Part shown: piece after piece, positions 22,778-35,294 of the stretch
How positions within the stretch are numbered: position 1 is the stretch's first letter
Layout: each line of letters begins with the position of its first letter
Assembly (NCBI GenBank): GCA_028700655.1
Contig: JAQVSG010000002.1
Coordinates: forward strand, 57,844 to 121,843
Reading direction: 5' to 3'
DNA from: Caldisericia bacterium
GTDB lineage: Bacteria; Caldisericota; Caldisericia; UBA6126
Length of the DNA: 64,000 bases
Translations under genes and position numbers: made by a program
Notes under the pieces: model-generated
Told to the model about the DNA's origin: nothing
The model's input: the letters and a program-made list of their open reading frames with translations, nothing else
The model's database searches: none

Positions 22778-23011
22778 ATGCCTTCCAAGTTAACAGACCG
22801 CTTAAAAAGAATTTTAGATGAAGATAGAAAAGTTTTATCCCCACAAAGTGAAAGAGACCTTCGGAAAAAATTAGCTGCAGTGTTAAGCCAATATTTTCCG
22901 ATTGATCAAAGAAAACTACACATTCGCGTCGTTAGAACCAATTATCAAACTTCCTACGAGTTAACGGCTGAAATGCCCATAAAAAAAAGTGAGTTAGACA
23001 AAGAAAAATGA
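22778..23011 (+). CDS. minE: cell division topological specificity factor MinE
   Basis: 77 aa. Position directly after minD. N-terminal basic/amphipathic segment. Sequence similarity to MinE is moderate, so the call rests partly on context. Confidence 0.6.
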   Translation: MPSKLTDRLKRILDEDRKVLSPQSERDLRKKLAAVLSQYFPIDQRKLHIRVVRTNYQTSYELTAEMPIKKSELDKEK

Positions 23012-24171
23012 AAATTCTTCAAACAGGTGATTTTTTCTTTGGTATTCAGAATATGGGGAAAAAAGAACCATACCCGTATGGTTTTTCTCAAATACACGAT
23101 TATGTTCGTTATTTATCTTTTATCTGCCAATATGCAATCGATCACCAAATAGATGTAGTGCTACTTTCCGGCAATCTTTTCTTTTCTTCTTTACCCAACG
23201 ACTTCCTCCAATCGGTTGTGCGAGAACGTATAAAAGACTTGGCCCAATCCAATATTCATTGCGTTGTATTGTCTGGAAAATATGATCAACCCTGCCAAGG
23301 TACTTCCTTTTTAGAGATGCTTCCTTCTCTATCTTTTCAGTATGTTCACACTATGCAGAAAGACGAATGTATTGTTTTAAAAAAAGACTCTGATGCTTTG
23401 CAAATTGCAGCACTCCCCTATAAAAAGATGAGCCCATCAGACGCAACTAGTCTTTCCTCTCGTTCAGAAATTGCAGAAAATCGGATTTCCAAACTGATTC
23501 CAAAGATCCAACCCGATCTATTTTCTGTCCTTTTTATGCAGGCCACTCTTTCATTCTTAGAACCCTTTTTTTTACTTCCCGATATACCTGCATTTCATGC
23601 CTCCTATTTACAAAGTCTTCCTTTTCAATATTTTGCCTTTGGTGGTCAACCCTTCAAAAAGATTGAGAAACTGTCGACATTGGAATCGTGGATTGGGTAC
23701 CCAGGTTCTTTGGGTGAATTTGAGTATGCAGACTCCACCATTGAAAGAGGCTTTCTTGTGTACGATTCTCTTTCTATTTCTGAACCTCCTCACTTCATTC
23801 CAAACCCTGAGCAAAGATTAACTGCTCTTATCCGCATTTCTGCCAATTCAGAAAAAGAAATTATGGAAAAACTGAACGAGGAGTTTCTTTTAAATGATTA
23901 CCGTGAACATATAACGCGAATTGTTTTACACACCGATGCAAATTTATCATTACCTTCAATTCATGGTAGTTTTGAAGAACATTGTTTTCATATTCACAGC
24001 ATTGAACAACAGGGTAAACAATTGCGTTATGTTGGCGATGAAGAAATACTGCCCATTCGTAGATATGTCGATTTCTATCTTGAAGAAAAGCGTTTACCAT
24101 TGCCGGAAATCTTGGAAGAAGAAGTGAATACTCATTGCTTATCCTACTTATATAACGAGTTGCCAGAATGA
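23008..24171 (+). CDS. SbcD/Mre11-like calcineurin-fold protein with all metal-binding motifs substituted (predicted inactive nuclease)
   Basis: 387 aa, collinear with E. coli SbcD. Motif I is MKILQTGDFFFG (SbcD: MRILHTSDWHLG). Motif II is LLSGNLFF (SbcD: VAGDVFD). Motif III is VVLSGKYD (SbcD: VLAGNHD). Later motifs are FAFGGQ and GYPGS instead of GH-containing motifs. The start overlaps the minE stop (ATGA). Confidence 0.75.
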   Translation: MKILQTGDFFFGIQNMGKKEPYPYGFSQIHDYVRYLSFICQYAIDHQIDVVLLSGNLFFSSLPNDFLQSVVRERIKDLAQSNIHCVVLSGKYDQPCQGTSFLEMLPSLSFQYVHTMQKDECIVLKKDSDALQIAALPYKKMSPSDATSLSSRSEIAENRISKLIPKIQPDLFSVLFMQATLSFLEPFFLLPDIPAFHASYLQSLPFQYFAFGGQPFKKIEKLSTLESWIGYPGSLGEFEYADSTIERGFLVYDSLSISEPPHFIPNPEQRLTALIRISANSEKEIMEKLNEEFLLNDYREHITRIVLHTDANLSLPSIHGSFEEHCFHIHSIEQQGKQLRYVGDEEILPIRRYVDFYLEEKRLPLPEILEEEVNTHCLSYLYNELPE

Positions 24172-27140
24172 TTCCACTCAAACTCACAATCCACAATTTT
24201 TTATCCTACAAAGGAACCCACCAACTGGATTTAGAAAACACCCGCTCTTTGATCATTACAGGTGATAATGGAGCTGGTAAAAGCAGTATCTTGGATGCAA
24301 TTTTATTCGCACTCTTTGGGTATACAAGAATTTCTAACAACCAACAAAGTTCTGCCAATATTATTCACTTTGAAGAAACAATGGCGTTTTCAGAATTTAC
24401 ATTTTTACTTCATGATGCCTGTTTTAGAATCAAACGAAGTACAAACCCTATACATTCTTTAGAAATCAAGGAGAGAAAACGTACCAATTGGAAAAATATA
24501 ACGAAAGAATCCGATCAAGAAACGCAAACCTTTATCGAAAAAGCACTTCATATTAATTTAAATAGTCTCTTCATGACCACCATAATGAGCTCTTCATTCT
24601 ATCACCAAAAAGATTTCTTAGACTATTCAGAAGAAGAAAGATATCAACGATTGGCTGGTTTTTTAGGACTATCCCTATTTCAAAATGCCTACGATCACAC
24701 CCAGAAAGATCTCTTTCAATATTCTGTACGAAAACAGGTTCTGGAAGAATACATCCATCAAAACAAAAATAAGTTCACGCAAAAAAAAGCTTTGCAAAAA
24801 ATTTTGGATGAAGAAATCGAAAAAAAGAATCAGCTTGAAATCGACCTTACCAAAATAAAAGACTCCATTGAATGTTTAGAAATCGAAATTGTTACAATCC
24901 GTCAACAATTGGATAATAAATCCCATCTTATGGATCAAATTCATCAACTTCGAAACTTTCAAAACGATCAGCGAAAAGAAAAATCTAAAATTCTTGAGGC
25001 ATTGAATCAACTACAACAATCTATCTCTTTACAACATGAAATTGAAAACGGTTACAAACAACTTTTAGACCTAATTCAACGAAACAAAATTCTCAATGAA
25101 AACCTGGAGCAAAGACAACGCATCGAACTGCAGATGAACGAGATTCAGAATTGCATTGAACAAGAAGAAATGGAATTAAAAGTCAAACGGAATGAACTTG
25201 AACAAAAAGAAATGGAGTATTCTCAAGAAAAAAGTTTGCTTCCCGATCTAAACTTTAAGATGCATGATATTCAATCAAAACTTAAAGAAATGGGAAAACA
25301 GAGATATCAGATTGAAAAATTAGAACAAGAAAAGAACGAGATACAAAACCAAATTTCTTCTTTAAACGAAAATACGGGGATGCTAAAACAGGAAAGAGTT
25401 GCAATACTAGAAACATACAGTACTATATCAAAACAGATTTCTGATCACGAACAAGTCATTCAGAAGGAACTTAGTACTAAAAAGAAACTGCAAACCATTC
25501 GAGAAAACAAAGAAAAAGTAAAACTCCTGCAAAGCAACATCGAAATTGAATACAATAAAAAAAAGAACCTAGAATCCCAAAATGAAAAGTTTAGTGAAAT
25601 GGCCATTCAGTTAAAAGAAAAAATCCGTTTTTTGGAACTACCAAAAACAACGGAAAATCGTTGCCCACTTTGCGGTACACCTTTAAGCAAAGACAAAGAA
25701 GCGGATATTCTTCTAAATTACCGTAGAGACCTTGAAATGAGAGAAACAACCCTAGAAAAGAACGCAAACACAATTCAACGAATCACCACAAAAATTGAGT
25801 CGCTACAAAGCGAGATTCTTATTCTTTCTGCTGATTTTGACCAAGAGGAGGAATTACAGAACTTGTATATGAAAATTCAAGAATGTAAGTCCACGATAGG
25901 CAAAATTACAGAAAATCACTATCGAGCGAAGCTGCAAGAGTCCAAAATTGAAGAAGAAATGAACAAGGTAACCCACAAGATCGCCAACTTGAAAAGTCGA
26001 TTTAAAACAATCGACAAGCAGTATGTTGAGGCTATGTTTGTTGTATCCAACCAATCGGTTCATGAAAACAGTTTGAGCGAACTACACTTACAGATTTCTA
26101 GTGCTCTTGAAGCAGATCAAAAGCTGCCGTCCGTCACGAAACAACTCATTGATATTAAACGAAGAATTGAAACAAAAAATTATGCCACCGACCAATGGAA
26201 GAAAGTAAACGATTTAAAGCTCAAGTTTTTTGCTATCCATTATAGTGCTCAAGAACACGAAAACATAAAAAATAAAATCAACCAGCTTAAGTATTTTGAA
26301 ACCGAAAAGAGAATTATGGATGAAAAGCTAAATGAAAAAGGGAGAATCTTAAATCAACTGAATGACATTGAAGATAAACTTGAAGAATTAGATACTGATA
26401 TTTCTATACTCGTCGAAAAAATAAAGAATATTGCGTATCAAAAAAACGATCTTGAGGAGGCGGAAACAAATGTAGAAAAATTCACACATCAAAAAGATTC
26501 TTGTACTCAAGAAAAAGAAGATGTAATGGTGTCGATTGCAAAACATGAAAGAGACATGGAAATTATTTTTGAAGTACAAAAGGAATTTGAAAAATCCCAA
26601 AAAGAATTGGATGATCTTCATACAAAAACTCAAATTGTCACTTTTTGTCAACAAGTTTTTTCTGATCAAAACCTTCCCACCTATATCCTGTACAGAGTTT
26701 TGCCTCTATTAGAAAGAGATGTCAATAGAATTCTGAGAAGTATTTCTAAAGAAACCTTAACCGTCTATATTTCTGTTAATAAAGATTCCATGTATGGCCA
26801 ACAGAAGATTTCTGTTTCCATTTCCAACATTAACAATACGATTGATTTCCCTTACTTAAGTCAAGGAGAACGATTTTGTATCCATATAGCGTTTCGCCTT
26901 GCTTTGTCTCGTTTATTACAGCAAAGCAAAGTGATAGAATCTCCATTTTTATGTATTGATAATGACTTTGGATCTTTAGATTTTTCTAGCAAACATCAAA
27001 TTATGTATACCCTGTTAAGAATTCAGGAACATTTCAATAAAGTCTTCTTGATATCTCATAATAACGAGTTTCAAAATTCATTTGATCAACACTTATTGGT
27101 TGAAAAAAAGCTAAAAGCATCAAATTTTTCATTTATTTAA
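24168..27140 (+). CDS. SbcC/Rad50-like SMC-family ATPase with zinc hook, degenerate signature and Walker B
   Basis: 990 aa. Walker A GDNGAGKSS. Long coiled-coil. Central CPLCG zinc hook. C-terminal head with LSQGE (SbcC: LSGGE), Walker B FLCIDN-DFGSLD (SbcC: LFLDE-GFGTLD, i.e. E to N), and H-loop LISHN. The start overlaps the upstream stop (ATGA). Confidence 0.8.
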   Translation: MIPLKLTIHNFLSYKGTHQLDLENTRSLIITGDNGAGKSSILDAILFALFGYTRISNNQQSSANIIHFEETMAFSEFTFLLHDACFRIKRSTNPIHSLEIKERKRTNWKNITKESDQETQTFIEKALHINLNSLFMTTIMSSSFYHQKDFLDYSEEERYQRLAGFLGLSLFQNAYDHTQKDLFQYSVRKQVLEEYIHQNKNKFTQKKALQKILDEEIEKKNQLEIDLTKIKDSIECLEIEIVTIRQQLDNKSHLMDQIHQLRNFQNDQRKEKSKILEALNQLQQSISLQHEIENGYKQLLDLIQRNKILNENLEQRQRIELQMNEIQNCIEQEEMELKVKRNELEQKEMEYSQEKSLLPDLNFKMHDIQSKLKEMGKQRYQIEKLEQEKNEIQNQISSLNENTGMLKQERVAILETYSTISKQISDHEQVIQKELSTKKKLQTIRENKEKVKLLQSNIEIEYNKKKNLESQNEKFSEMAIQLKEKIRFLELPKTTENRCPLCGTPLSKDKEADILLNYRRDLEMRETTLEKNANTIQRITTKIESLQSEILILSADFDQEEELQNLYMKIQECKSTIGKITENHYRAKLQESKIEEEMNKVTHKIANLKSRFKTIDKQYVEAMFVVSNQSVHENSLSELHLQISSALEADQKLPSVTKQLIDIKRRIETKNYATDQWKKVNDLKLKFFAIHYSAQEHENIKNKINQLKYFETEKRIMDEKLNEKGRILNQLNDIEDKLEELDTDISILVEKIKNIAYQKNDLEEAETNVEKFTHQKDSCTQEKEDVMVSIAKHERDMEIIFEVQKEFEKSQKELDDLHTKTQIVTFCQQVFSDQNLPTYILYRVLPLLERDVNRILRSISKETLTVYISVNKDSMYGQQKISVSISNINNTIDFPYLSQGERFCIHIAFRLALSRLLQQSKVIESPFLCIDNDFGSLDFSSKHQIMYTLLRIQEHFNKVFLISHNNEFQNSFDQHLLVEKKLKASNFSFI

Positions 27141-27207: not shown

Positions 27208-27408
27208 TTGAAAAAAGTAAACGATGTTGTAATTAACGAGTTGCGTTGTAAGCGTTGCAGTATCTGTGTACAGATCTGCCCGAAAAAAGTTTTTGCGATC
27301 GATTCCACGGGATATGTCTTCGTCGAAGACTTACCATCGTGTATTGGATGTCTTTCCTGTCAAGAACATTGTCCGGATTTAGCTGTTGAGGTAATTTTCA
27401 ATGAGTAA
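27208..27408 (+). CDS. korD: 2-oxoacid:ferredoxin oxidoreductase delta subunit (2x[4Fe-4S] ferredoxin)
   Basis: 66 aa with CKRCSICVQICP and CIGCLSCQEHCP. TTG start per the ORF track. Confidence 0.8.
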   Translation: MKKVNDVVINELRCKRCSICVQICPKKVFAIDSTGYVFVEDLPSCIGCLSCQEHCPDLAVEVIFNE

Positions 27409-28525
27409 ACAAAGAGAAATTTTACAAGGTGCCGAAGCATGCGTTAAGGGTGCTATTAAAGCAGGTATTGGCTTTTTTGCGGGATATCCCATTACGCCTT
27501 CTACAGAAATAGCAGAATTGTTATCCACGGAGTTAGCAAAAGAAGAAAAGATCTTCATTCAAATGGAAGATGAAATTGCAAGCATCACGGCAATTATTGG
27601 AGCTTCTTTAGCGGGAAAGAAATCCATGACAGCAACATCAGGCCCAGGCTTCTCATTAATGCAAGAAGGGCTTGGTTATGCAACCATCGCCGAAGTACCT
27701 ATTGTTGTTGTGAATGTACAACGAGGTGGACCTTCCACAGGTTTACCAACAAAAGTATCTCAAGGAGATGTAATGCAATCAAAATGGGGCACGCATGGAG
27801 ATCACCCCGTGATTGTATTAAGCCCCTGTTCTGTACAAGAGCTTTACGAAATGACTATTCAAGCATTTAACCTAGCTGAAAAATACCGTAACCCTGTCGT
27901 TATTTTAACTACAGAAACCATTGTCCACATGAGAGAAAAGGTTGAGATTGATCCCTTTGAAACCGTGGATATTTTTAATCGGATTCTTCCTTCGATTAAC
28001 CCCGGAGACACATATCTACCCTACGGTAAATTTTCTGATGATGTTCCTATTATGGGTAACATCGGAGATGGTTACGGAACCAGTGTAACTGGATTGGTAC
28101 ATATGGAAAATGGATTCCAGAGTGCAGACTATGAGGTGGCAGATCGCCTTGTCCGTAGAATACATCGGAAAATCGAAAAGCATACCTCTGATCTCTTTGA
28201 CATAGAAATCTTGAATCCCGATGCTGAAACGATGTTTATTTCCTACGGAGTAGCCAGCCGCACAGTAAAATCATTGATCTATACGAACCACCCTGAAATT
28301 GGCTTGGTTCGACCAAAAACCCTGTTCCCGATTGATCCAATAAAAATTCAACAAGCCACCAAAAATGCGAAACGTATTGTTGTTTCAGAGTTAAATCTTG
28401 GGCAATATTACTTTGAAATGCAACGAATCTTGCCTCATAAAAAAGTGCATCTTATAGAGAAAATTGGCGGAGAATTGATATCACCAAATGAAATGCTCAG
28501 AAGAATCGAGGAACTCCATGATTAA
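27401..28525 (+). CDS. korA: 2-oxoacid:ferredoxin oxidoreductase alpha subunit
   Basis: 374 aa of the KorA/PorA/VorA family (…GYPITPSTEI…). Overlaps korD by 8 nt. Confidence 0.85.
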   Translation: MSKQREILQGAEACVKGAIKAGIGFFAGYPITPSTEIAELLSTELAKEEKIFIQMEDEIASITAIIGASLAGKKSMTATSGPGFSLMQEGLGYATIAEVPIVVVNVQRGGPSTGLPTKVSQGDVMQSKWGTHGDHPVIVLSPCSVQELYEMTIQAFNLAEKYRNPVVILTTETIVHMREKVEIDPFETVDIFNRILPSINPGDTYLPYGKFSDDVPIMGNIGDGYGTSVTGLVHMENGFQSADYEVADRLVRRIHRKIEKHTSDLFDIEILNPDAETMFISYGVASRTVKSLIYTNHPEIGLVRPKTLFPIDPIKIQQATKNAKRIVVSELNLGQYYFEMQRILPHKKVHLIEKIGGELISPNEMLRRIEELHD

Positions 28526-29333
28526 AGGCGAGAAATTTCTAAATCCTGATCGTCTTCCTACAATATGGTGCCCTGGATGTGGCAATGGTATTGTATTACA
28601 CGCTGCTATGGAAACTCTTGAAGAGATGGGTTGTACAAAAAAAGATGTGATATGTATCTCTGGCATAGGATGTTCCTCCCGATCTGGCACATATACACAA
28701 TTTGACCAAGTCCATACATTGCATGGTCGTGCCATTCCATTTGCTACTGCCATTAAACTTGCTAGGCCTGATAAAAAAGTGATCGTTTTCACAGGCGATG
28801 GAGATGCAAGTGCAATAGGAGGTAATCACCTAATTCATGCAGCAAGACGAAACATCGATATTACTGTCATTGTATTCAACAATAGCATATATGGCATGAC
28901 GGGGGGTCAAGTGTCTCCCTTGACAGGTTCTTATAAAAAAGGAACCACAGCCCGTTTTGGAAATTATGAAAACCGATTTGATCTTGTACATCTTGCTATT
29001 GGTGCCGGAGCAACATATGTAGCAAGAACTGGCACTTACTACTACCGTCACATGAAGAAATACATGGAAAAAGGGTTTTCAAGAAAAGGGTTTTCCTTAC
29101 TTGAAGTGGTAACACAATGTCCTGTTTACTATGGACGTTTAAATGGTACGCCTGATCCTTACAAAATGATGATGGAACAAAAAGACATGCTCGTTTTACA
29201 ATCTAAGTATGACGCCCTATCGGTGGAGGATCAAGCATCCCACTTGCCCATGGGTGAATTTATTGAAGACAATCAGCAATTATCCTATATTGAAAAACGC
29301 GAGCAACTCTTAAAAAAGGTGAGAGAATCATGA
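28518..29333 (+). CDS. korB: 2-oxoacid:ferredoxin oxidoreductase beta subunit (TPP-binding)
   Basis: Start at ATG 28518 (GAGGA RBS, 8-nt overlap with the korA stop). TPP motif FTGDGDASAIGGNHLIHAARRN and N-terminal WCPGCGNG. Confidence 0.85.
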   Translation: MIKGEKFLNPDRLPTIWCPGCGNGIVLHAAMETLEEMGCTKKDVICISGIGCSSRSGTYTQFDQVHTLHGRAIPFATAIKLARPDKKVIVFTGDGDASAIGGNHLIHAARRNIDITVIVFNNSIYGMTGGQVSPLTGSYKKGTTARFGNYENRFDLVHLAIGAGATYVARTGTYYYRHMKKYMEKGFSRKGFSLLEVVTQCPVYYGRLNGTPDPYKMMMEQKDMLVLQSKYDALSVEDQASHLPMGEFIEDNQQLSYIEKREQLLKKVRES

Positions 29334-29890
29334 GAAAAGAAATCCGATATTCAGGTTCTGGTGGCCAAGGCCTAATTACAGCTACTCGTGTTATTGCAAG
29401 AGCTGCACTTAGAGAAAACAAAAATGCTTTACAATCGCAGTCTTATGGAGCTGAAGCACGGGGTGGAGCAACAAAAAGTGAAGTCATTATTAGCGATAAA
29501 GAAATATTTTTCCCCGAAGTTGAAATTCCTGATATTCTATTGCTAATGACACAAGAAGCCTATACAAAATATGGGACTTCTATTAAGGAAAATGGGATTC
29601 GTATTTTGGATAGTTTTTTTATTCCTGACTACGAGCCTATTTCCAAGGCTGTTACTCACACCGAGCCATTTACTGCTATTTGCGAGGAAGAATTTGGGAC
29701 ACGTATCGTGGCTAACATGATGGCTACAGGGTATATGTTGGGCATAACAAAGGTAATCGAAATTTCAACATTTACACAAGCAATTGGGGATTTTTTCTCT
29801 GATAATAAGTTAACTCTCAATATAAAAGCAGCTAAATTTGGATATGAAATGACAAAAAAAGGAAAAGAAGAGGAAACAGATCAGGACTAA
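29330..29890 (+). CDS. korG: 2-oxoacid:ferredoxin oxidoreductase gamma subunit
   Basis: 186 aa. GSGGQG motif of Por/Kor gamma subunits. 4-nt overlap with korB. Substrate specificity (2-oxoglutarate vs pyruvate/ketoisovalerate) cannot be assigned from sequence alone. Confidence 0.75.
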   Translation: MRKEIRYSGSGGQGLITATRVIARAALRENKNALQSQSYGAEARGGATKSEVIISDKEIFFPEVEIPDILLLMTQEAYTKYGTSIKENGIRILDSFFIPDYEPISKAVTHTEPFTAICEEEFGTRIVANMMATGYMLGITKVIEISTFTQAIGDFFSDNKLTLNIKAAKFGYEMTKKGKEEETDQD

Positions 29891-29997
29891 AAAACTGAAT
29901 TGCCAGTATATCTTTCTTCTTCATTTTACAGCTTTTTTTGATCACATTTAAATGTCCGTAAACACAACATAACGGACATATCATCCTTCTCAATGGT

Positions 29998-30660
29998 TTA
30001 TTTATGACCGTAAATTAGCTTTTGGCTTACACTTTGGATTTCTCTTCGAAGATTGTAATCATTTTGTATCATTTTATAAATGCACACAATATCAAATCGA
30101 GCATCATGGTACCCGATTGAGGAGCTCTGAAACAACTCTTTGCATGTTTTCAAAGCGTCTTCTTCGTCAATTTTTAAGAACTGCATAGTTTCCGATACTT
30201 TTGGCCATTTATAGTCATCATACAAGCCTGGTAAACGGATTATGTTTGTGTAATACTTCATTGTGCACCAATAAGGAATCGCTTTCTGTTGAAGAAAAAA
30301 ATGTCTCATAAAGCGAATATCAAAACCTGCATTGTGAGCAATAGATAAAAGATACTTTGTAGAAAAATCGTGCTGAATTTCATGGACATAGAATGAGTAG
30401 GGCTTTGCTCCAAGTTGAATTAATTTTGCTTTCGTTAATCCGTGTATTTTTATTGCAGCTTCAGGAACTTCCTCTTGAACTTCAAAATAAAAATTTTTAG
30501 CGTTGGTAATTTGTAAATTCTGGTTGAGGAGAATATACGCCAATTGGATAGGTTTATCTTTTGGCGGATGCAAACCTGTTGTTTCGAAATCAAACAATGC
30601 ATAATAAGAGGGTTCAAATAGTCCAATAACAGAATCATCCACCAAACGTTTATTTTTCAC
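29998..30660 (-). CDS. stand-alone DEDDh 3'-5' exonuclease (DnaQ/epsilon-like)
   Basis: 220 aa. Exo I FDFETTGL, Exo II HNAGFDIRFM, Exo III YHDARFD (H-x4-D). No polymerase or helicase domain attached. Confidence 0.8.
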   Translation of the reverse strand: MKNKRLVDDSVIGLFEPSYYALFDFETTGLHPPKDKPIQLAYILLNQNLQITNAKNFYFEVQEEVPEAAIKIHGLTKAKLIQLGAKPYSFYVHEIQHDFSTKYLLSIAHNAGFDIRFMRHFFLQQKAIPYWCTMKYYTNIIRLPGLYDDYKWPKVSETMQFLKIDEEDALKTCKELFQSSSIGYHDARFDIVCIYKMIQNDYNLRREIQSVSQKLIYGHK

Positions 30661-30696
30661 GACACCCCTCCCCGAAATACCAAGAATATCGCCATA

Positions 30697-30733
30697 AAAA
30701 AAACCCCTTCCATTCTCTAGAAGGGGTTTTTCT
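30697..30733 (-). terminator. Rho-independent terminator downstream of the ATPase gene (also readable on +)
   Basis: Inverted repeat AAACCCCTTC / GAAGGGGTTT around a 9-nt loop at 30701-30729. It is followed by T8 on the - strand and T5 on the + strand. Confidence 0.6.
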
Positions 30734-30743
30734 GAAGCTTGAT

Positions 30744-32096
30744 TTAAATGATTTCAACCAACTCTTCTAGTGTTATTAATTGTACATTCTTTCTGTTTCC
30801 GACAATTCTTCGCAGATCAGGTGTAAATCCTTTTTTGCTGATAAAATAATAATGCTTTTGTCGAAGCTTGGACTTAAAAGGAACAACCTGAGTGCTTTCT
30901 ACAAAGTTTCTGTACATTTGTTTTGTGTAGAGTGTTTCGTCTATAAAAATATCACCAAATATCGCCTTCTTATAGTCGGTACTCATAATATCAACACTAT
31001 GTGTTTCATAGTCCCACCACGGAGAAGTTAATAATGGCACAAAGGGGTCTGTAAGACTAGATAACCACTGCTTTGATATTTCTACAACAATATGATCAAT
31101 AAAGGTGTTGTAATCTTCTTTAAGATGTTTCACGATAATATCTGGGTTCAACATATGAAGTGCTTCTGGATCGAAATAGACGTAACGGAACCAGAAATAC
31201 AAAAACATATCGCTAATCATGTACTTACTCTTTCGAGTGACTTTAGGATTTGTACTATTTCCCGGAACCACACGACCAATGAGTTTCATTTCGCGTAGAC
31301 GGTCAACAAAGGATGTTAAATTATGGGTTTGTAGGTTGAGTTGATGGGAAAGATCGCCGATTTTAAGTTCATGATATGCCAATACTTGTAAAACAGAATA
31401 ATAAGTGGATGGTTCGTGAAATTCGTAGCGTAATACGGAACAAGGATCATAATAGGGGAGTCTAGTTGGAGAAATAAAGTTCTCCTTTACGTTGTCAAAC
31501 AAGTCAAGATTAGGGTCAATCCATTCCATATACCTAGCAACACCACCAGTAATACCATAAAGTTCAATCTGTCGCATAGGATCCATGTCTTTATAGTAAT
31601 CGCGAAACTCTTTAAATGACAAGGGTTTTAATTCAATTTGATGAAAACGATCTTGGGTAAAACCTTCAAATCGGAAACTTATAAAATTGGCTTGAGGATA
31701 GGAGGAAGTAATAAAAATAGTAAAAGGTGCATTAACAGAATGCCTCTCCATAGGAATCAAAATGTCCTGAGTAATTTTGTATAAGAAATGAAAATCATCC
31801 CAAACAACAATGAAGTTTTCTTTTTTTGCTAAGCTGTAAAGATTGGTAAGAAAATCTTTCCAAGTAATATCGGATTCAAAGTCTGGATATTGTCTTCGCA
31901 CAACACGGATGAAACGTCGTATTTGTACAGGAGGATGTTGGGATAAACATTTAAAATAGAAACCCTTCTTGTCTTTCAAGAAATTACGGACTAAGTAGGT
32001 TTTTCCACCACCTGCTGTACCGTGTAATAAGATCATCTTGTAATTATGATCTTCATACACCTTCTGAAGGTAATCGAACACTTTCTTGTGAATCAT
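30744..32096 (-). CDS. COG1672-type AAA+ ATPase (Arch_ATPase/ATPase_2 domain) with C-terminal DUF234-like domain
   Basis: 450 aa. Walker A LHGTAGGGKTYL. Walker B IVVWDDFHF. C-terminal ~100 aa (…SPWWDYETHSVDIMSTDYKKAIFGDIFIDETLY…) matches the DUF234 module that habitually follows this ATPase. Confidence 0.75.
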   Translation of the reverse strand: MIHKKVFDYLQKVYEDHNYKMILLHGTAGGGKTYLVRNFLKDKKGFYFKCLSQHPPVQIRRFIRVVRRQYPDFESDITWKDFLTNLYSLAKKENFIVVWDDFHFLYKITQDILIPMERHSVNAPFTIFITSSYPQANFISFRFEGFTQDRFHQIELKPLSFKEFRDYYKDMDPMRQIELYGITGGVARYMEWIDPNLDLFDNVKENFISPTRLPYYDPCSVLRYEFHEPSTYYSVLQVLAYHELKIGDLSHQLNLQTHNLTSFVDRLREMKLIGRVVPGNSTNPKVTRKSKYMISDMFLYFWFRYVYFDPEALHMLNPDIIVKHLKEDYNTFIDHIVVEISKQWLSSLTDPFVPLLTSPWWDYETHSVDIMSTDYKKAIFGDIFIDETLYTKQMYRNFVESTQVVPFKSKLRQKHYYFISKKGFTPDLRRIVGNRKNVQLITLEELVEII

Positions 32097-32192
32097 GATG
32101 ATACTCCTTATTAATAATATGAGTTTTATTTTTTATGATTGTAAACAAAAATTGGAAAATTGGAAATCACAAACAAAAAAAATGAAACTTTT

Positions 32193-33905
32193 TTACATTT
32201 TAGCGTACTTATATGAACGGAGATTCTTTTTAACCTGCCTTGAATCTCCGTTCAATTCTATTGCAAGATCAGGTATAGAAACAACTTCCAGCTCATAACC
32301 ATTCTCGCCGGATACCAAAAATAAAAGTGTATCCGATTTTGAGTTTACAAAAAAAACAAGAGAGGTTGCAAGATTCGGTTGTGAATCGGTAAGATAACCA
32401 GCATATTGAATGCCGAAAGAATCGGGTTGAAAAAATAACCAATAGGGAGTTTCCTGAATATTCATGCGAATAATAACATGTTTTTCGGTCGCATAAATCA
32501 TAGAAATGGGAGCGTCTGGTATTTTAAATGTTGGCGGTAGGTTCCAGTTTTGCTGGGGTATACCGGTATCAAGGTTTAAAAATTCAATGTGAATCTCCTG
32601 GTTTTGGGATTCTAATAGTCGGATCTGAAAAGTGTCCTGCCATACGCTACTTATTTGTGAAAATTCAGATTGATGGAACCAAAGGATGGTACCCGTTTTT
32701 ACCTCTACACAAAGAACGGTGGAATAGGATATTTCTATGAGTACTTTTTGGGGAGAGTTCTTGAAAGCAGTGTATTGACATTCAACACCGTATTGTTGCG
32801 CAAAATCTCCTAATACTTGATGAAAAGGTGTTTCCCACAGGATGCTACCGGTTTCTTTATCATACGCAATGAAGAAATACTCTGAACCTTTTCTATAACT
32901 ACACAAAATGGAAGATGGTGTTTCGAAATACGAATTGTGAAAACGAACTTCTTGTAGAGAATTAAGACGGTACTCTGTAAGAATTTTCCCAGTCTCGGGT
33001 TCAATTCGGTACGCATAAGGTTCCCCATTCTCTTTCGTGGGGACAAAAATACTTGAATCGGAGAGGATTCGAAAATTACGGTAATACTCTTGTTGATAAG
33101 GTTCATCCGAAGTCTCAAGAACAGAATCATGTTGCCATATTTTTTCTCCCGTCGTAGGATGAATTCCTACAAGGGAGGTTCCTTTTGTAAATAGTAGCAC
33201 ATAGGGAGAAAACCCTAGAAAAGAATGAGACTTGTCTTGGAGAATCATGGACCAAAGAACATTTCCCGTTTTCGCATGAAGGCCTGTAATAGTAGCTTTT
33301 TGGAGAGAACTATCAAAAAGCATACGTGTTACATTTTCAGTATTAATGGCAAAATAATAATCATGACCGTAGGAGGCAATTTCATGTTTCCATAATTCCT
33401 CTGAAGTGGCCTTGGAAAGACAAAATACATGAGTCTTATCACGGCATAGAAAGTAATCCTCGGAAGCTTGTAAAAAGGCTCGATTGTATAGATATGACTG
33501 CTCTTTAACCATGTTTTCTTGAAGCAATGCAATTTTTGTAAACCCTGCATCACCTGTACTCACAAATATTTCATTCTCATTCCAAACGCTGTTATGTCCT
33601 GGTGGTCCCATTGTGGCTGGATAGGTACGAAGAGTATTTCGCAACAAGACAGGACCCTGCAGAGGGAAAAGAGCCGTACTCTTTGTTGTTTCTATTGTTA
33701 CTTCTTTGTCTTTGAAGTCATTGTCTGCTGGTTTTTCCACCGGGTCATCAAGAGAAGTCCTTCTGTCATTATCTGTAGTTGAATCTATAGGGGAGGATTC
33801 AGTATGTGAGTTTTCTTTTTTGCACGAAACAAGTCCAAAAGAAGCAAAAAAGAATGCTACAACAAGAATAAAAACAAAAACTTGACGTTTTTCATGGAAT
33901 ATCAT
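32193..33905 (-). CDS. PQQ-like beta-propeller lipoprotein (BamB-like repeat protein)
   Basis: ~570 aa. Lipobox LVSC, an acidic linker, then repeated W/Y-rich blades (…GEKIWQHDS…, …TGNVLWSM…, …TGSILWETP…, …TGTILWFHQ…). ATG 33905 is preferred because of an AGGAGA RBS. Confidence 0.65.
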   Translation of the reverse strand: MIFHEKRQVFVFILVVAFFFASFGLVSCKKENSHTESSPIDSTTDNDRRTSLDDPVEKPADNDFKDKEVTIETTKSTALFPLQGPVLLRNTLRTYPATMGPPGHNSVWNENEIFVSTGDAGFTKIALLQENMVKEQSYLYNRAFLQASEDYFLCRDKTHVFCLSKATSEELWKHEIASYGHDYYFAINTENVTRMLFDSSLQKATITGLHAKTGNVLWSMILQDKSHSFLGFSPYVLLFTKGTSLVGIHPTTGEKIWQHDSVLETSDEPYQQEYYRNFRILSDSSIFVPTKENGEPYAYRIEPETGKILTEYRLNSLQEVRFHNSYFETPSSILCSYRKGSEYFFIAYDKETGSILWETPFHQVLGDFAQQYGVECQYTAFKNSPQKVLIEISYSTVLCVEVKTGTILWFHQSEFSQISSVWQDTFQIRLLESQNQEIHIEFLNLDTGIPQQNWNLPPTFKIPDAPISMIYATEKHVIIRMNIQETPYWLFFQPDSFGIQYAGYLTDSQPNLATSLVFFVNSKSDTLLFLVSGENGYELEVVSIPDLAIELNGDSRQVKKNLRSYKYAKM

Positions 33906-33929
33906 CCAATCTCCTATCAACACCCTTTC

Positions 33930-34439
33930 CTATTCTTCATTGGTAGGGGGAGTAAATGTACGAGAACTAAGCTCTCTATCGATCATTAACAATCCTTTTC
34001 CGTCATTTTCTATCATTTCAAGTTCTTGTACAATTTTACTGACGTTATCCTCTTCTTCGACTTGTTCATCAACAAACCAATTTAAAAAGGTTTTGCTGGG
34101 ATAATCTTTTTCTTCCTCAGCAACAGATACTAAATTGTGAATGCAAGAAGTAATATGTTTCTCGTGTTCTAAGGAAGCTTTAAATGCATCCAGAGGATTT
34201 TTCCATTCAAACGCTGGTTCTTTTATGGCCGTCAAACGAATTCTTCCCCCTCTTTGAACAATGTGAGAAAAAAACTTTTCAGCATGAAACAATTCTTCTT
34301 CAGCTTGTACTTTCATCCAATTTGAAAATCCTGAAAGCCCTATGCTTTCGAAATACGCTCTAATTGCCTGGTATAAATAGGCAGAATAAAGCTCTTCGTT
34401 AATTTGTTGGTTGAGTACTTCTTCAATTCTTTTTTTCAT
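33930..34439 (-). CDS. ftn: non-haem ferritin (Ftn)
   Basis: 169 aa. Ferroxidase-centre residues in ELYSAYLY…EEELFHAEKF…LEHEKHIT. Four-helix-bundle ferritin architecture. Confidence 0.85.
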   Translation of the reverse strand: MKKRIEEVLNQQINEELYSAYLYQAIRAYFESIGLSGFSNWMKVQAEEELFHAEKFFSHIVQRGGRIRLTAIKEPAFEWKNPLDAFKASLEHEKHITSCIHNLVSVAEEEKDYPSKTFLNWFVDEQVEEEDNVSKIVQELEMIENDGKGLLMIDRELSSRTFTPPTNEE

Positions 34440-34466
34440 ATCGCAATCCTTTCAATAATCAAAATC

Positions 34467-34859
34467 TTAAGACGGATTTACATCCGTTTTCCAAAGTCCA
34501 TGAATATTACAAAAGGCAAATACAACACCTTTTTGTGGGGGGATTTCAAAGGTTGCTTCTGCAACATCCTGATCAATAACTTCTTTCCGAATTACAAAAT
34601 CATCTTTTCTTCGAAATTCAATCCACTCAATATGATGCTTTTCTTCCATAGGATGTGGTACTTCGCCAATTTTAACTACTATTTTGTCGGGATGAAACTC
34701 GACAACGGGTTTGTGTTTTTCGTTTCCTTTGTCTTCCGTTTGAGGGAATCTTTCAACCATAGGTTTACCACAACAAATCAGAGGTGCAATTCCACCTCGT
34801 AATGTCTCTACGACATTACCGCACACTTCACACTCATAAATACTGTCTTTAGTAGCCAT
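34467..34859 (-). CDS. dfx: desulfoferrodoxin (2Fe superoxide reductase)
   Basis: N-terminal desulforedoxin Cys4 (CEVCGNVV…CCG), and a C-terminal neelaredoxin centre (H…H…CNIHG). ATG at 34859 with a GGAGG RBS; the ORF-track TTG at 34871 lacks an RBS. Confidence 0.85.
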   Translation of the reverse strand: MATKDSIYECEVCGNVVETLRGGIAPLICCGKPMVERFPQTEDKGNEKHKPVVEFHPDKIVVKIGEVPHPMEEKHHIEWIEFRRKDDFVIRKEVIDQDVAEATFEIPPQKGVVFAFCNIHGLWKTDVNPS

Positions 34860-34871
34860 ATTAGCCTCCAA

Positions 34872-35294
34872 TCATGATAGTAAATTCCGAATAAACAATT
34901 CTGCACGATGAATAACAAAACGATCATTCCCATGTTTTAAGTAATTTCGAGCTTCAGTTTCGGGCAACCACTTTGAATGATCATGTTCATTGCAGATAAA
35001 ACGAACATTCTGCTCGTGTGTAGTACCAAGGAAAAAAACAACATCTTTTACACAATCGGGAAAAGGACAATAGCATATCGTTTCTCTAAAACCAGGTATA
35101 AAACGAATATCTTGAAAGCCAACTTCTTCATATATTTCGCGTCTAGCGGTTTGAATTTCACTTTCTTGGTTTTCAACATGTCCCTTAATCAAACCCCAAT
35201 ACCGAGAATGAAGCCGGTAACGCACAATCAAATATAATATTCGTTTATGCTCATGACGATAAATAATAGTGCCACAAGATTTTTCAAATCTCAT
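34872..35294 (-). CDS. Nudix hydrolase
   Basis: 140 aa. Nudix box GLIKGHVENQESEIQTARREIYEEVGF (Gx5Ex7REUxEExGU). Confidence 0.8.
   Translation of the reverse strand: MRFEKSCGTIIYRHEHKRILYLIVRYRLHSRYWGLIKGHVENQESEIQTARREIYEEVGFQDIRFIPGFRETICYCPFPDCVKDVVFFLGTTHEQNVRFICNEHDHSKWLPETEARNYLKHGNDRFVIHRAELFIRNLLS

Follow-up and report, generated by a model that had tools for sequence, protein, structure and literature searches.

The two adjacent genes at positions 29998 to 32096 of the 64,000-nucleotide window, the whole stretch of Caldisericia DNA analyzed here, are on balance best read as two unrelated genes that are neighbors by chance: an ATP-gated, DNA-binding ATPase with a degenerate nuclease domain and a phage-derived exonuclease. 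The ATPase falls within the DUF234/COG1672 (PDC-S27) ATPase-nuclease family, in a subfamily that is divergent and has been inherited vertically. This subfamily retains the P-loop and, in Walker B, the Asp that binds Mg; its winged helix is almost invariant, and its PD-(D/E)xK-like domain has kept its fold but lost the catalytic Lys. Such a protein may function in housekeeping or regulation, perhaps in connection with the oxidative-stress block beside it, and in our view probably does not act as a restriction-like defense nuclease. The exonuclease, catalytically intact as judged by its residues, is DnaQ-like and of the type found in phage replication modules. It occupies a variable slot in one sub-clade, where purifying selection has kept it, and it probably acts alone.

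RESULTS

The first-pass annotation of this DNA had described an ATPase with a DUF234 tail and a DEDDh exonuclease, both encoded opposite to the kor operon. The ORF list bears out the two reading frames, their coordinates, and their orientation relative to the Kor genes (27208-29890, plus strand), and the domain calls hold as well, with Pfam matches above cut-off to DUF234 and RNase_T. The ATPase gene (30744-32096, minus strand) is an ORF of 450 aa whose product comprises, in order, an ORC/Cdc6/STAND-like P-loop domain, a winged helix, and a degenerate PD-(D/E)xK-like (DUF234) domain. The DUF234 (PF03008) match, at residues 302 to 382, reached 26.7 bits against a cut-off of 22.5, which places the protein in that family; in the same Pfam search, the ATPase fell under the cut-offs for AAA_14, AAA_22, AAA_16, and ATPase_2 (PF01637; 17 bits, cut-off 33). 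Its Walker A motif, GTAGGGKT (residues 26 to 33; 31998-32021, minus strand), conforms to the P-loop pattern GxxxxGK[ST], and distant family members, when aligned, all share its G31 and K32. The Walker B motif, FIVVWDD (residues 95 to 101; 31794-31814, minus strand), has an invariant D100 but departs from the hhhhDE pattern with its catalytic Glu, since residue 101 is Asp where the family has Glu; 78 of the 79 distant members carry DE here, and the Caldisericota clade carries DD. The hhhhDD form of Walker B is that of NB-ARC/Apaf-1, where it is linked to nucleotide-switch behavior and typical of STAND-type ATP/ADP switches, and ATP hydrolysis is still possible with it. The motif states thus point to a mechanism that may be switch-like.

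An AlphaFold2 model of the ATPase (pLDDT 84.7) gave Apaf-1 (STAND), Orc1/Cdc6, and 2qen as its best Foldseek matches. Because this whole-protein search aligned only the ATPase and winged-helix part, the C-terminal domain was modeled separately. The winged-helix region (residues 226 to 300; 31197-31421, minus strand) is the most conserved part of the protein and forms the signature of the subfamily, with identities of 88 to 92% within the clade, 53% to two sister proteins (P0155 and P0156), and 11 to 31% to canonical members, and with a dN/dS of 0.000 to 0.022. The signature includes the stretch THNLTSF[LV]DRLRE. Profile comparison matched the region to HTH chains of the MarR/ArsR type. The PD-(D/E)xK-like (DUF234) domain (residues 329 to 450; 30747-31112, minus strand) has, by the secondary structure of the models, the alpha-beta-beta-beta-alpha-beta core of the PD-(D/E)xK superfamily. 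The best PDB fold matches of its separate model were all PD-(D/E)xK nucleases (AF1548, SduA, Cdn1, MspJI, NucS/EndoMS, McrC, HamA, and Hjc), at weak E-values of 5e-3 to 0.2. DUF234/COG1672 has been classed among these nucleases (Steczkiewicz et al. 2012, PMC3424549), so that the fold given for DUF234 in the first-pass annotation agrees with both the literature and the model.

The PD-(D/E)xK residues that had been sought in the ATPase C terminus, however, are incomplete. Roughly 74 of the 79 distant members have ECK, EVK, or EAK as the family's catalytic E-x-K; alignment with them places D382-I383-F384 (30945-30953, minus strand) at this position. In terms of the D...(D/E)-x-K signature, D369 and D382 are present and the Lys is F384. 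Most clade sequences likewise have DIF, and the two most divergent have DIV or DIN (the latter in L020). We judge that the ATPase is probably not an active nuclease effector, because the catalytic Lys is replaced in every clade sequence examined. The family's SPLFGRR motif is also absent from the window's ATPase in alignment with the family. E339, K342, D369, and D382 are invariant within the Caldisericota clade and leave room for a non-canonical nuclease. The C-terminal domain as a whole is under purifying selection (dN/dS 0.008 to 0.052).

Among defense profiles, PADLOC PDC-S27 (PDLC04984) matched the ATPase at 1.1e-18 and 65 bits, in keeping with the earlier view of the family at large as a defense candidate. 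The match covers residues 7 to 306 only, corresponding to profile positions 11 to 326 of 474, and is not full length when judged by comparison with canonical members: P0157, P0009, and P0133 align from profile positions 3-4 to 446-467 with 170 to 206 bits, whereas in the divergent subfamily only the N-terminal two thirds are covered, with 65 to 100 bits. An exhaustive search returned the clade as one cluster at 50% identity, then the two sister proteins at 33%, and then more than 2000 proteins at 21 to 29%. P0155 and P0156 have the winged-helix signature of the clade and are also without E-x-K, with K-I-N at that position in P0155 and T-V-Y in P0156. The active-site positions of P0156 hold S, E, and T-V-Y, and the site has decayed differently in the sister lineages. 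Each of their genes adjoins an FBP aldolase gene among housekeeping genes. Elsewhere, a Lachnospiraceae homologue adjoins a methyltransferase, and in L008 and L021 a methyltransferase lies beside the ATPase; the latter match Pfam families of general SAM-dependent methyltransferases (Methyltransf_11, Methyltransf_25, and Ubie_methyltran) and not the N6/N4 DNA-methylase families. A methyltransferase partner was rejected, there being none in the window.

These data also bear on whether the ATPase alone is a working single-gene defense nuclease of the PDC-S27 type, with a rearranged active site and stable inheritance in the clade. PD-(D/E)xK enzymes tolerate rearranged active sites, and the PDC-S27 match, the retained PD-(D/E)xK-like fold, the four invariant residues, and the constraint on the C-terminal domain would all suit such a nuclease. 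We nevertheless regard this as unlikely: Phe, Val, or Asn stands in place of the Lys within the clade, the site decays differently in sister lineages, coverage of the profile is partial, and the housekeeping position of the gene is fixed over deep divergence, as opposed to the heterogeneous neighbors of canonical members. PDC-S27 is, moreover, itself an unvalidated defense candidate: a single representative was tested in E. coli B, and it did not figure with the candidates protecting against T4, T5, or T7. A DNA-binding ATPase with a decayed nuclease domain fits these observations better.

The genomic setting of the ATPase is that of a core gene. The PQQ-propeller gene adjoins it in all seven species-level Caldisericota genomes, a set found via clade-specific peptide patterns, which genomes lacking the ATPase would have escaped; the same adjacency occurs in metagenomic relatives. 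The PQQ-propeller gene is part of a block with NUDIX, desulfoferrodoxin, and ferritin genes (32193-35294, minus strand), upstream of and co-directional with the ATPase, and the ATPase is tied to this block in every clade genome. Identity to the window copy is 88%, 81 to 82%, and 64% in three groups of relatives, compared with 90% and 85% for KorA (two groups where present) and 88% and 82% for MinD, and in L193 the divergence of the ATPase equals that of Kor-like genes nearby. Since synonymous sites between the window and its relatives were saturated or nearly so, dN/dS was taken from closer pairs among the relatives, giving 0.020 to 0.036 for the ATPase versus 0.006 to 0.045 for KorA, KorG, and MinD.

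Nothing in the surroundings marks an island. The rest of the window, including the neighbors of the ATPase, consists of housekeeping genes, and the single PADLOC match among the other 51 window proteins was a generic subtilase, which provides no defense context. Around 29300-32400, neither direct nor inverted repeats reached significance; there were no tRNA genes at the patch borders and no Rfam matches in the window, and the GC content of the patch (0.33 to 0.37) lies inside that of the flanks (0.30 to 0.42). Insertion of the patch was accordingly rejected, with no repeats, tRNA genes, or composition shift to mark it, and the proposal of an accessory patch cannot be sustained given the PQQ-ATPase adjacency and the core-like identity and dN/dS. 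The label "accessory" survives in part for the exonuclease, for which the signs of a mobile or accessory element are mixed (its slot is filled in five of seven species, and its relatives are of phage type), and not for the ATPase. The first-pass annotation had itself held that a core-like locus would tell against its proposal; the ATPase is core-like, and therefore the proposal fails for this gene on its own terms.

Directly after the ATPase stop codon lies the intrinsic-terminator hairpin that had been annotated earlier (30697-30733, minus strand; -24.8 kcal/mol, z = -4.8). None of 200 shuffles folded as well, an A-run precedes the hairpin and an eight-U run follows it, and a hairpin occurs at the same position in six relatives with differing stem sequences. 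It is missing from the list of the pattern scanner. The hairpin has the shape of a bidirectional terminator, as had been stated, but no gene converges on it. Nor can each gene be taken as its own transcription unit, as the same annotation had it: no terminator was found between the NUDIX gene and the ATPase ahead of the ATPase hairpin, and the hairpin is only 36 nt from the exonuclease start, the ATPase and exonuclease genes being 83 bp apart. Upstream of the ATPase, a Shine-Dalgarno sequence, AAGGAG (32104-32109, minus strand), can be read from the sequence, and a promoter-like TTTCCA-17 nt-TACAAT (32138-32166, minus strand) matches the consensus at a level no commoner than in shuffled sequence. 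The sequence that follows the exonuclease shows no folding beyond that of shuffled controls (z = -0.3).

The stand-alone DEDDh 3'-5' exonuclease gene (29998-30660, minus strand) encodes 220 aa from a GTG start after GGGGAGGGG. The protein matched Pfam RNase_T at 3.4e-14 and 54.1 bits (cut-off 24), and its Exo I/II/III residues D24, E26, D114, H185, and D190 do not vary among 13 sequences. Its best profile was phrog_192, "DNA polymerase exonuclease subunit" (7.8e-26); it also matched PADLOC "DEDDh" (Cas-associated) and PDC-S48. We treat the PADLOC DEDDh match as generic DnaQ similarity; phrog_192 scores higher. A CRISPR link suggested by that match was rejected, the window having no tandem repeat arrays and no cas-type matches elsewhere. 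The gene is under purifying selection (dN/dS 0.075 to 0.11) and changes more quickly than the neighboring core genes. Its slot, bounded by the ATPase terminator on one side and the kor operon on the other, is filled by it in five of the seven species; in L020 and L021 this slot holds other genes, and the ATPase is kept without the exonuclease.

The relatives of the exonuclease outside this slot point to phages. P0023, the nearest non-syntenic relative, is 55 to 57% identical to every chromosomal copy and is thus an outgroup to these. Its neighbors, a replisome organiser, a DnaC-like loader, and a Lar-like gene, make up a replication module of phage type. This setting is that of the copy in the MAG containing L021. 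Another relative, P0026, is on a phage-like contig. Close phage relatives were not found, with IMG/VR giving only 22 to 36% identity; catalogued phages reached about 28%, all with exonuclease domains of phage Pol III alpha. A phage origin is suggested by two short or uncultured contigs only (L023 and L025) and seems probable to us on that footing.

Could the exonuclease instead be the housekeeping proofreading subunit of this lineage, a DnaQ/epsilon equivalent that is not phage derived? The intact DEDDh site, the low-scoring similarity to dnaQ and the exonuclease domain of PolC, the conservation of position and purifying selection in five species, and the annotation of phrog_192 as a polymerase exonuclease subunit would agree with that role. 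It seems quite unlikely all the same, as all NCBIfam scores are far below their cut-offs (polC, 50.7 bits versus 1043; dnaQ_proteo, 38.2 versus 222.7), two species do not have the gene in the slot, the copy in the MAG of L021 sits in a phage-type replication module, and the rate of evolution exceeds that of the surrounding core genes. A housekeeping orthologue, which had been named beforehand as a finding that would undercut the defense proposal, was accordingly not what we saw, the non-syntenic relatives lying in phage-type contexts; the exonuclease is better taken as a phage replication-type gene.

The first-pass annotation had joined the two genes in a candidate module for defense or nucleic-acid processing. 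In such a module the exonuclease would be a partner or effector, and the ATPase could supply the sensor or motor. Adjacency, shared direction, and the 83-bp spacing in five species speak for such a module, as do the matches of the ATPase to PDC-S27 and of the exonuclease to PADLOC DEDDh and PDC-S48, and the purifying selection on both genes. We consider it very improbable. Two of seven species have the ATPase and no exonuclease in the slot, no DEDDh gene lies within 5 kb of any of 79 distant family ATPases, and a strong terminator hairpin separates the genes; the dN/dS rates differ (about 0.03 for the ATPase versus about 0.1 for the exonuclease), the window has no other defense genes and no tandem repeat array, and the PADLOC DEDDh match can be put down to the DnaQ fold in general. 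The partnership, the expected co-occurrence of COG1672 with DEDDh exonucleases, and the mobile two-gene system built on them are thus not borne out: the ATPase is conserved at a fixed position, and the exonuclease adjoins it in only part of the lineage. Against reading the two as unrelated neighbors, which we still prefer, stands the fact that five species have retained the exonuclease beside the ATPase, with purifying selection acting on it; the two could also be co-expressed if transcription reads through the hairpin.

DISCUSSION

It is conceivable, and we put it forward tentatively, that an old nuclease-degenerate branch of DUF234/PDC-S27 has been domesticated as a core gene in the Caldisericota clade and in at least one distantly related lineage. 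Its product would be an ATP-gated DNA-binding factor of the winged-helix kind that has so far gone unrecognised. Such a factor might, for instance, serve in stress-linked regulation or in chromosome maintenance, and would give a documented case of a defense-type enzyme domesticated for a housekeeping role. Defense-finder tools would label this ATPase PDC-S27 and count a defense candidate, yet this part of a very abundant, unvalidated family shows the opposite evolutionary signature: its synteny is fixed, its purifying selection core-like, its nuclease site decayed, and its DNA-binding helix conserved. This is a caution for defense-system censuses and a lead to the role of the ATPase and winged-helix scaffold once nuclease chemistry is gone. 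The exonuclease, for its part, may offer a small example of a phage replication-type gene kept as a lone chromosomal gene. Current understanding is unchanged by either finding unless the functions are tested.

Among known systems, the exonuclease shares its DEDDh catalytic residues and fold with phage DnaQ-like exonucleases (PHROG 192) and with bacterial Pol III epsilon. It differs from the former in standing alone on a chromosome, with no polymerase, primase, or loader adjoining, and from Pol III epsilon and PolC in scoring far under every NCBIfam dnaQ or PolC cut-off.

For the ATPase, the P-loop domain and winged helix are shared with two archaeal Walker-type ATPases of Pfam ATPase_2, PABY2304 (2qen) and the SSO1545-type protein (2fna). 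Among proteins of solved structure, 2qen and 2fna come closest to it in profile searches (9e-9 and 1e-8), and 2qen is also among the best fold matches (TM-score 0.44 query-normalised, 0.55 target-normalised). Their chains have about 350 residues, and the alignments to the family profile stop at 180 (2qen) and 282 (2fna), before the DUF234 region. Orc1/Cdc6 initiators and STAND NTPases (Apaf-1, NB-ARC, and Avs) are the top Foldseek matches over the ATPase and winged helix, at 9 to 15% identity. Neither group is known to carry a PD-(D/E)xK-like domain. The window's ATPase, in turn, lacks the repeat sensor domains found in STAND proteins, and nothing ties it to replication origins.

The closest parallel is PDC-S27, "ATPase fused to a PD-(D/E)xK domain," which has the same length, domain order, and C-terminal fold, with homology over the P-loop and winged-helix region. 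The differences lie in the motifs, where canonical members have E-x-K and a Walker B DE in place of D-I-F and DD, and in the genomic context. The genes around canonical members are heterogeneous, with many from mobile elements and restriction-modification systems (for example, HsdM, integrases, and toxin-antitoxin genes), whereas the window's ATPase combines fixed synteny among housekeeping genes with core-like dN/dS.

Organization and conservation of the locus

The first-pass annotation had placed two minus-strand genes and a hairpin in this patch, and ORF calls, Pfam matches to DUF234 and RNase_T, and folding bore out their positions, strands, and domains. The ATPase gene (30744–32096; 450 aa) is followed by the hairpin (30697–30733; −24.8 kcal/mol, z = −4.8), which has an A-run before it and an eight-U run after it, and then by the exonuclease gene (29998–30660; 220 aa, GTG start). 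A pattern scan had no entry for this hairpin; six relatives carry one at the same position, with differing stem sequences. NUDIX, desulfoferrodoxin, ferritin, and PQQ-propeller (PQQ) genes (32193–35294) lie on the same strand as the patch, and the Kor genes (27208–29890) on the plus strand. Going downstream from NUDIX, no intergenic terminator was found before the hairpin, so the ATPase may be the final gene of the NUDIX-desulfoferrodoxin-ferritin-PQQ unit. It is also possible that ATPase and exonuclease are co-expressed by read-through.

The window sequence finds its match in a Caldisericia MAG (GCA_028707715.1). Housekeeping genes account for its remaining 51 larger ORFs (MreB, V-ATPase, Rnf, Hsp70, acetate kinase, class I tRNA synthetase, GatB, and penicillin-binding protein), and a PADLOC scan of these 51 matched solely a generic subtilase. 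Immediately 5′ of the kor operon is an SbcD-like and SbcC-like pair (23008–27140) whose position is conserved in every close relative; its 990-aa protein, with a Rad50 zinc hook, has PADLOC matches to LmuB, DndD, and PbeC, which we attributed to the common SMC-type ATPase head rather than to a defense system. A 132-aa plus-strand ORF (34404–34802), almost wholly overlapping the desulfoferrodoxin gene (34467–34871, minus strand), is probably spurious; desulfoferrodoxin itself has 134 aa from a TTG start in our listing versus 130 aa in public records.

Contigs bearing relatives of either protein share the order S8 peptidase, NUDIX, desulfoferrodoxin, ferritin, PQQ, ATPase, exonuclease, korGBA(D), SbcCD, and MinED. 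With one genome taken per species, a scan turned up seven Caldisericota MAGs, one of them titled Calditrichota (DAIMET010000003.1); yet that contig has the full Caldisericota-type block at 62 to 93% protein identity to the window, and its label is probably wrong. Because PQQ and ATPase are adjacent in 7/7 MAGs but the exonuclease separates ATPase and korG in only five (ATPase identity, 81 to 88%), the conserved unit is the oxidative-stress block plus the ATPase, and the region just 3′ of the hairpin is a variable slot. In L020 (ATPase identity, 69%), the slot (L020:11427–14116) holds four unrelated genes before korG, encoding a small GGQ-motif protein resembling ArfB, a membrane protein, a 148-aa protein, and an aldo-keto-reductase-like Fe-S protein, suggesting a rearrangement hotspot 3′ of the ATPase terminator. 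In L021 (64%), the slot contains a SAM-methyltransferase and a GNAT gene, and kor genes are absent. Searches of the whole window for tRNA genes, Rfam families, and tandem repeats were all negative, a repeat search around the patch gave nothing meaningful, and patch GC falls inside the range of the flanks. Together with the invariant PQQ-ATPase adjacency, these results do not bear out, for the ATPase, the earlier idea of an insertion.

In another relative (L022:10960–11020, from the same record as L011, GCA_040767255.1), loss of a single nucleotide near codon 329 breaks the ATPase orthologue, immediately ahead of its nuclease-like domain, into 354-aa and 114-aa ORFs. Nothing else disrupts the downstream sequence, so the frameshift reflects either recent pseudogenization or an error of assembly.

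Domains and divergence of the ATPase

The ATPase matched Pfam DUF234 at 26.7 bits (cut-off, 22.5) and several P-loop families, all under their cut-offs; PADLOC PDLC04984 (1.1e-18) covered residues 7 to 306 only. The N-terminal two thirds of an AlphaFold2 model (pLDDT, 84.7) match Apaf-1, a STAND protein, Orc1/Cdc6, and the archaeal Walker-type ATPase 2qen, in agreement with sequence-profile matches to 2qen, 2fna, TnsC, and Cdc6; MarR/ArsR-type helices were matched at profile positions 234 to 325. Modeled separately, the C-terminal 150 residues (pLDDT, 80.5) adopt an alpha-beta-beta-beta-alpha-beta topology whose best PDB matches are all PD-(D/E)xK nucleases (AF1548, SduA, Cdn1, MspJI, NucS/EndoMS, McrC, HamA, and Hjc), with weak E-values (5e-3 to 0.2). 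This fold had been anticipated, but E-x-K is replaced by D-I-F. Compared with 79 distant family members from metagenomes, the Caldisericota clade has DD instead of DE (78/79) in Walker B, and D-I-F or D-I-V (D-I-N in L020) instead of E-x-K (~74/79). The family's SPLFGRR motif is absent from the window ATPase.

We searched every representative of a 1.8-billion-protein library for this subfamily. The whole clade fell into one 50%-identity cluster. Just P0155 and P0156 came next, at 33%, ahead of >2000 proteins at 21 to 29%. P0155 and P0156 share the clade's winged-helix signature, THNLTSF[LV]DRLRE, and have K-I-N (P0155) or T-V-Y (P0156) at the E-x-K position; P0156 also lacks the clade residues at positions 339 and 369. 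In each case an FBP aldolase gene immediately precedes the ATPase gene, and the neighbors are housekeeping genes (L193:6907–9362; L196:1–2443); the two aldolases are 41% identical. The L193 surroundings resemble the window neighborhood: both a kor-like operon and an S8-PA peptidase gene lie within 8 kb, and these genes (29 to 37%) and the ATPase (31%) are equally diverged from their window counterparts.

ATPase identities to the window (88%, 81 to 82%, and 64% in three groups of relatives) equal those of KorA, KorB, KorG, and MinD and exceed those of ferritin, desulfoferrodoxin, NUDIX, SbcCD, S8 peptidase, and the PQQ protein; exonuclease identities are 73% and 65%. In the pairs of relatives with the least saturated synonymous sites, dN/dS was 0.020 to 0.036 for the ATPase, 0.006 to 0.045 for KorA, KorG, and MinD, 0.075 to 0.111 for the exonuclease, and 0.15 to 0.19 for the PQQ protein. 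Within the ATPase, the winged helix is best conserved (88 to 92% in the clade; 53% to P0155/P0156) and the nuclease-like domain least (50 to 57%; 18 to 19%), with purifying selection still acting on the latter.

Origin of the exonuclease

The exonuclease matches Pfam RNase_T (3.4e-14), and its DEDDh residues are all invariant. The best profile across libraries was phrog_192, "DNA polymerase exonuclease subunit" (7.8e-26); the NCBIfam dnaQ and polC models scored far under their cut-offs. A proofreading role is possible. A homologue, P0023, is 55 to 57% identical to each chromosomal copy and is therefore an outgroup to them; its 3.7-kb contig belongs to the MAG that includes L021 and also carries genes for a replisome organizer, a DnaC-like loader, and a Lar-like restriction-alleviation protein, plus phrog_6802. 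Another, P0026 (34 to 36%), lies on a phage-like contig rich in short, co-directional ORFs (L025:2273–9475), where a Tad2-like (anti-Thoeris family) gene adjoins it and an N6 DNA methylase lies further upstream. Relatives in public phage collections are only 22 to 36% identical. A search for DEDDh genes within 5 kb of the 79 distant family ATPases found none.

Discussion

Our data largely fail to support a two-gene defense module, given the 5/7 occupancy of the slot, the 0/79 linkage, the loss of E-x-K, and the housekeeping window; the ATPase and exonuclease are neighbors through a juxtaposition specific to this lineage. For the exonuclease, the best reading is a DnaQ-like enzyme of phage type that was captured and would act independently of the ATPase. 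A rearranged nuclease site in the ATPase is possible, and selection persists on that domain; the ATPase is nonetheless best read as a domesticated branch of a defense-type family, probably nuclease inactive, that would work through ATP-gated DNA binding.

The placement of DUF234 with PD-(D/E)xK folds proved correct: DUF234/PF03008/COG1672 is listed as such a group fused to an ATPase (PMC3424549). In PADLOC the family is PDC-S27, a candidate from "guilt-by-embedding" in restriction-modification, BREX, or DISARM loci (bioRxiv 10.1101/2024.01.29.577857), described as a fusion of an ATPase with a PD-(D/E)xK domain and abundant among both bacteria and archaea (PMC12988326). When one representative was tried in E. 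coli B, it fell outside the set of candidates protecting against T7, T5, or T4 (bioRxiv 10.1101/2024.09.26.614923). In four Lachnospiraceae-type loci (L109 to L112), a canonical ATPase with E-x-K (P0133) is followed after ~42 bp by a co-directional N6_N4 DNA methyltransferase, resembling a restriction-modification pair; rubrerythrin and Fur genes adjoin, and SbcCD is upstream in 3/4 contexts. The presence of SbcCD and oxidative-stress genes near both P0133 and the window ATPase may be coincidence.

The window ATPase is a new variant within a known but uncharacterized family. Canonical members align to the PDC-S27 profile over their full length (170 to 206 bits) but the window subfamily only over its N-terminal two thirds (65 to 100 bits), and canonical members mostly combine E-x-K with a DE Walker B, in contrast to D-I-F/V/N with DD in the clade. 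Canonical neighbors are heterogeneous (128 flanking genes in 108 Pfam families, led by HsdM-type methylases, integrases, AAA_21, Fic, Phd, and NACHT; a co-directional downstream neighbor within 150 bp in 13/64), whereas the clade ATPase keeps a fixed place beside the PQQ gene.
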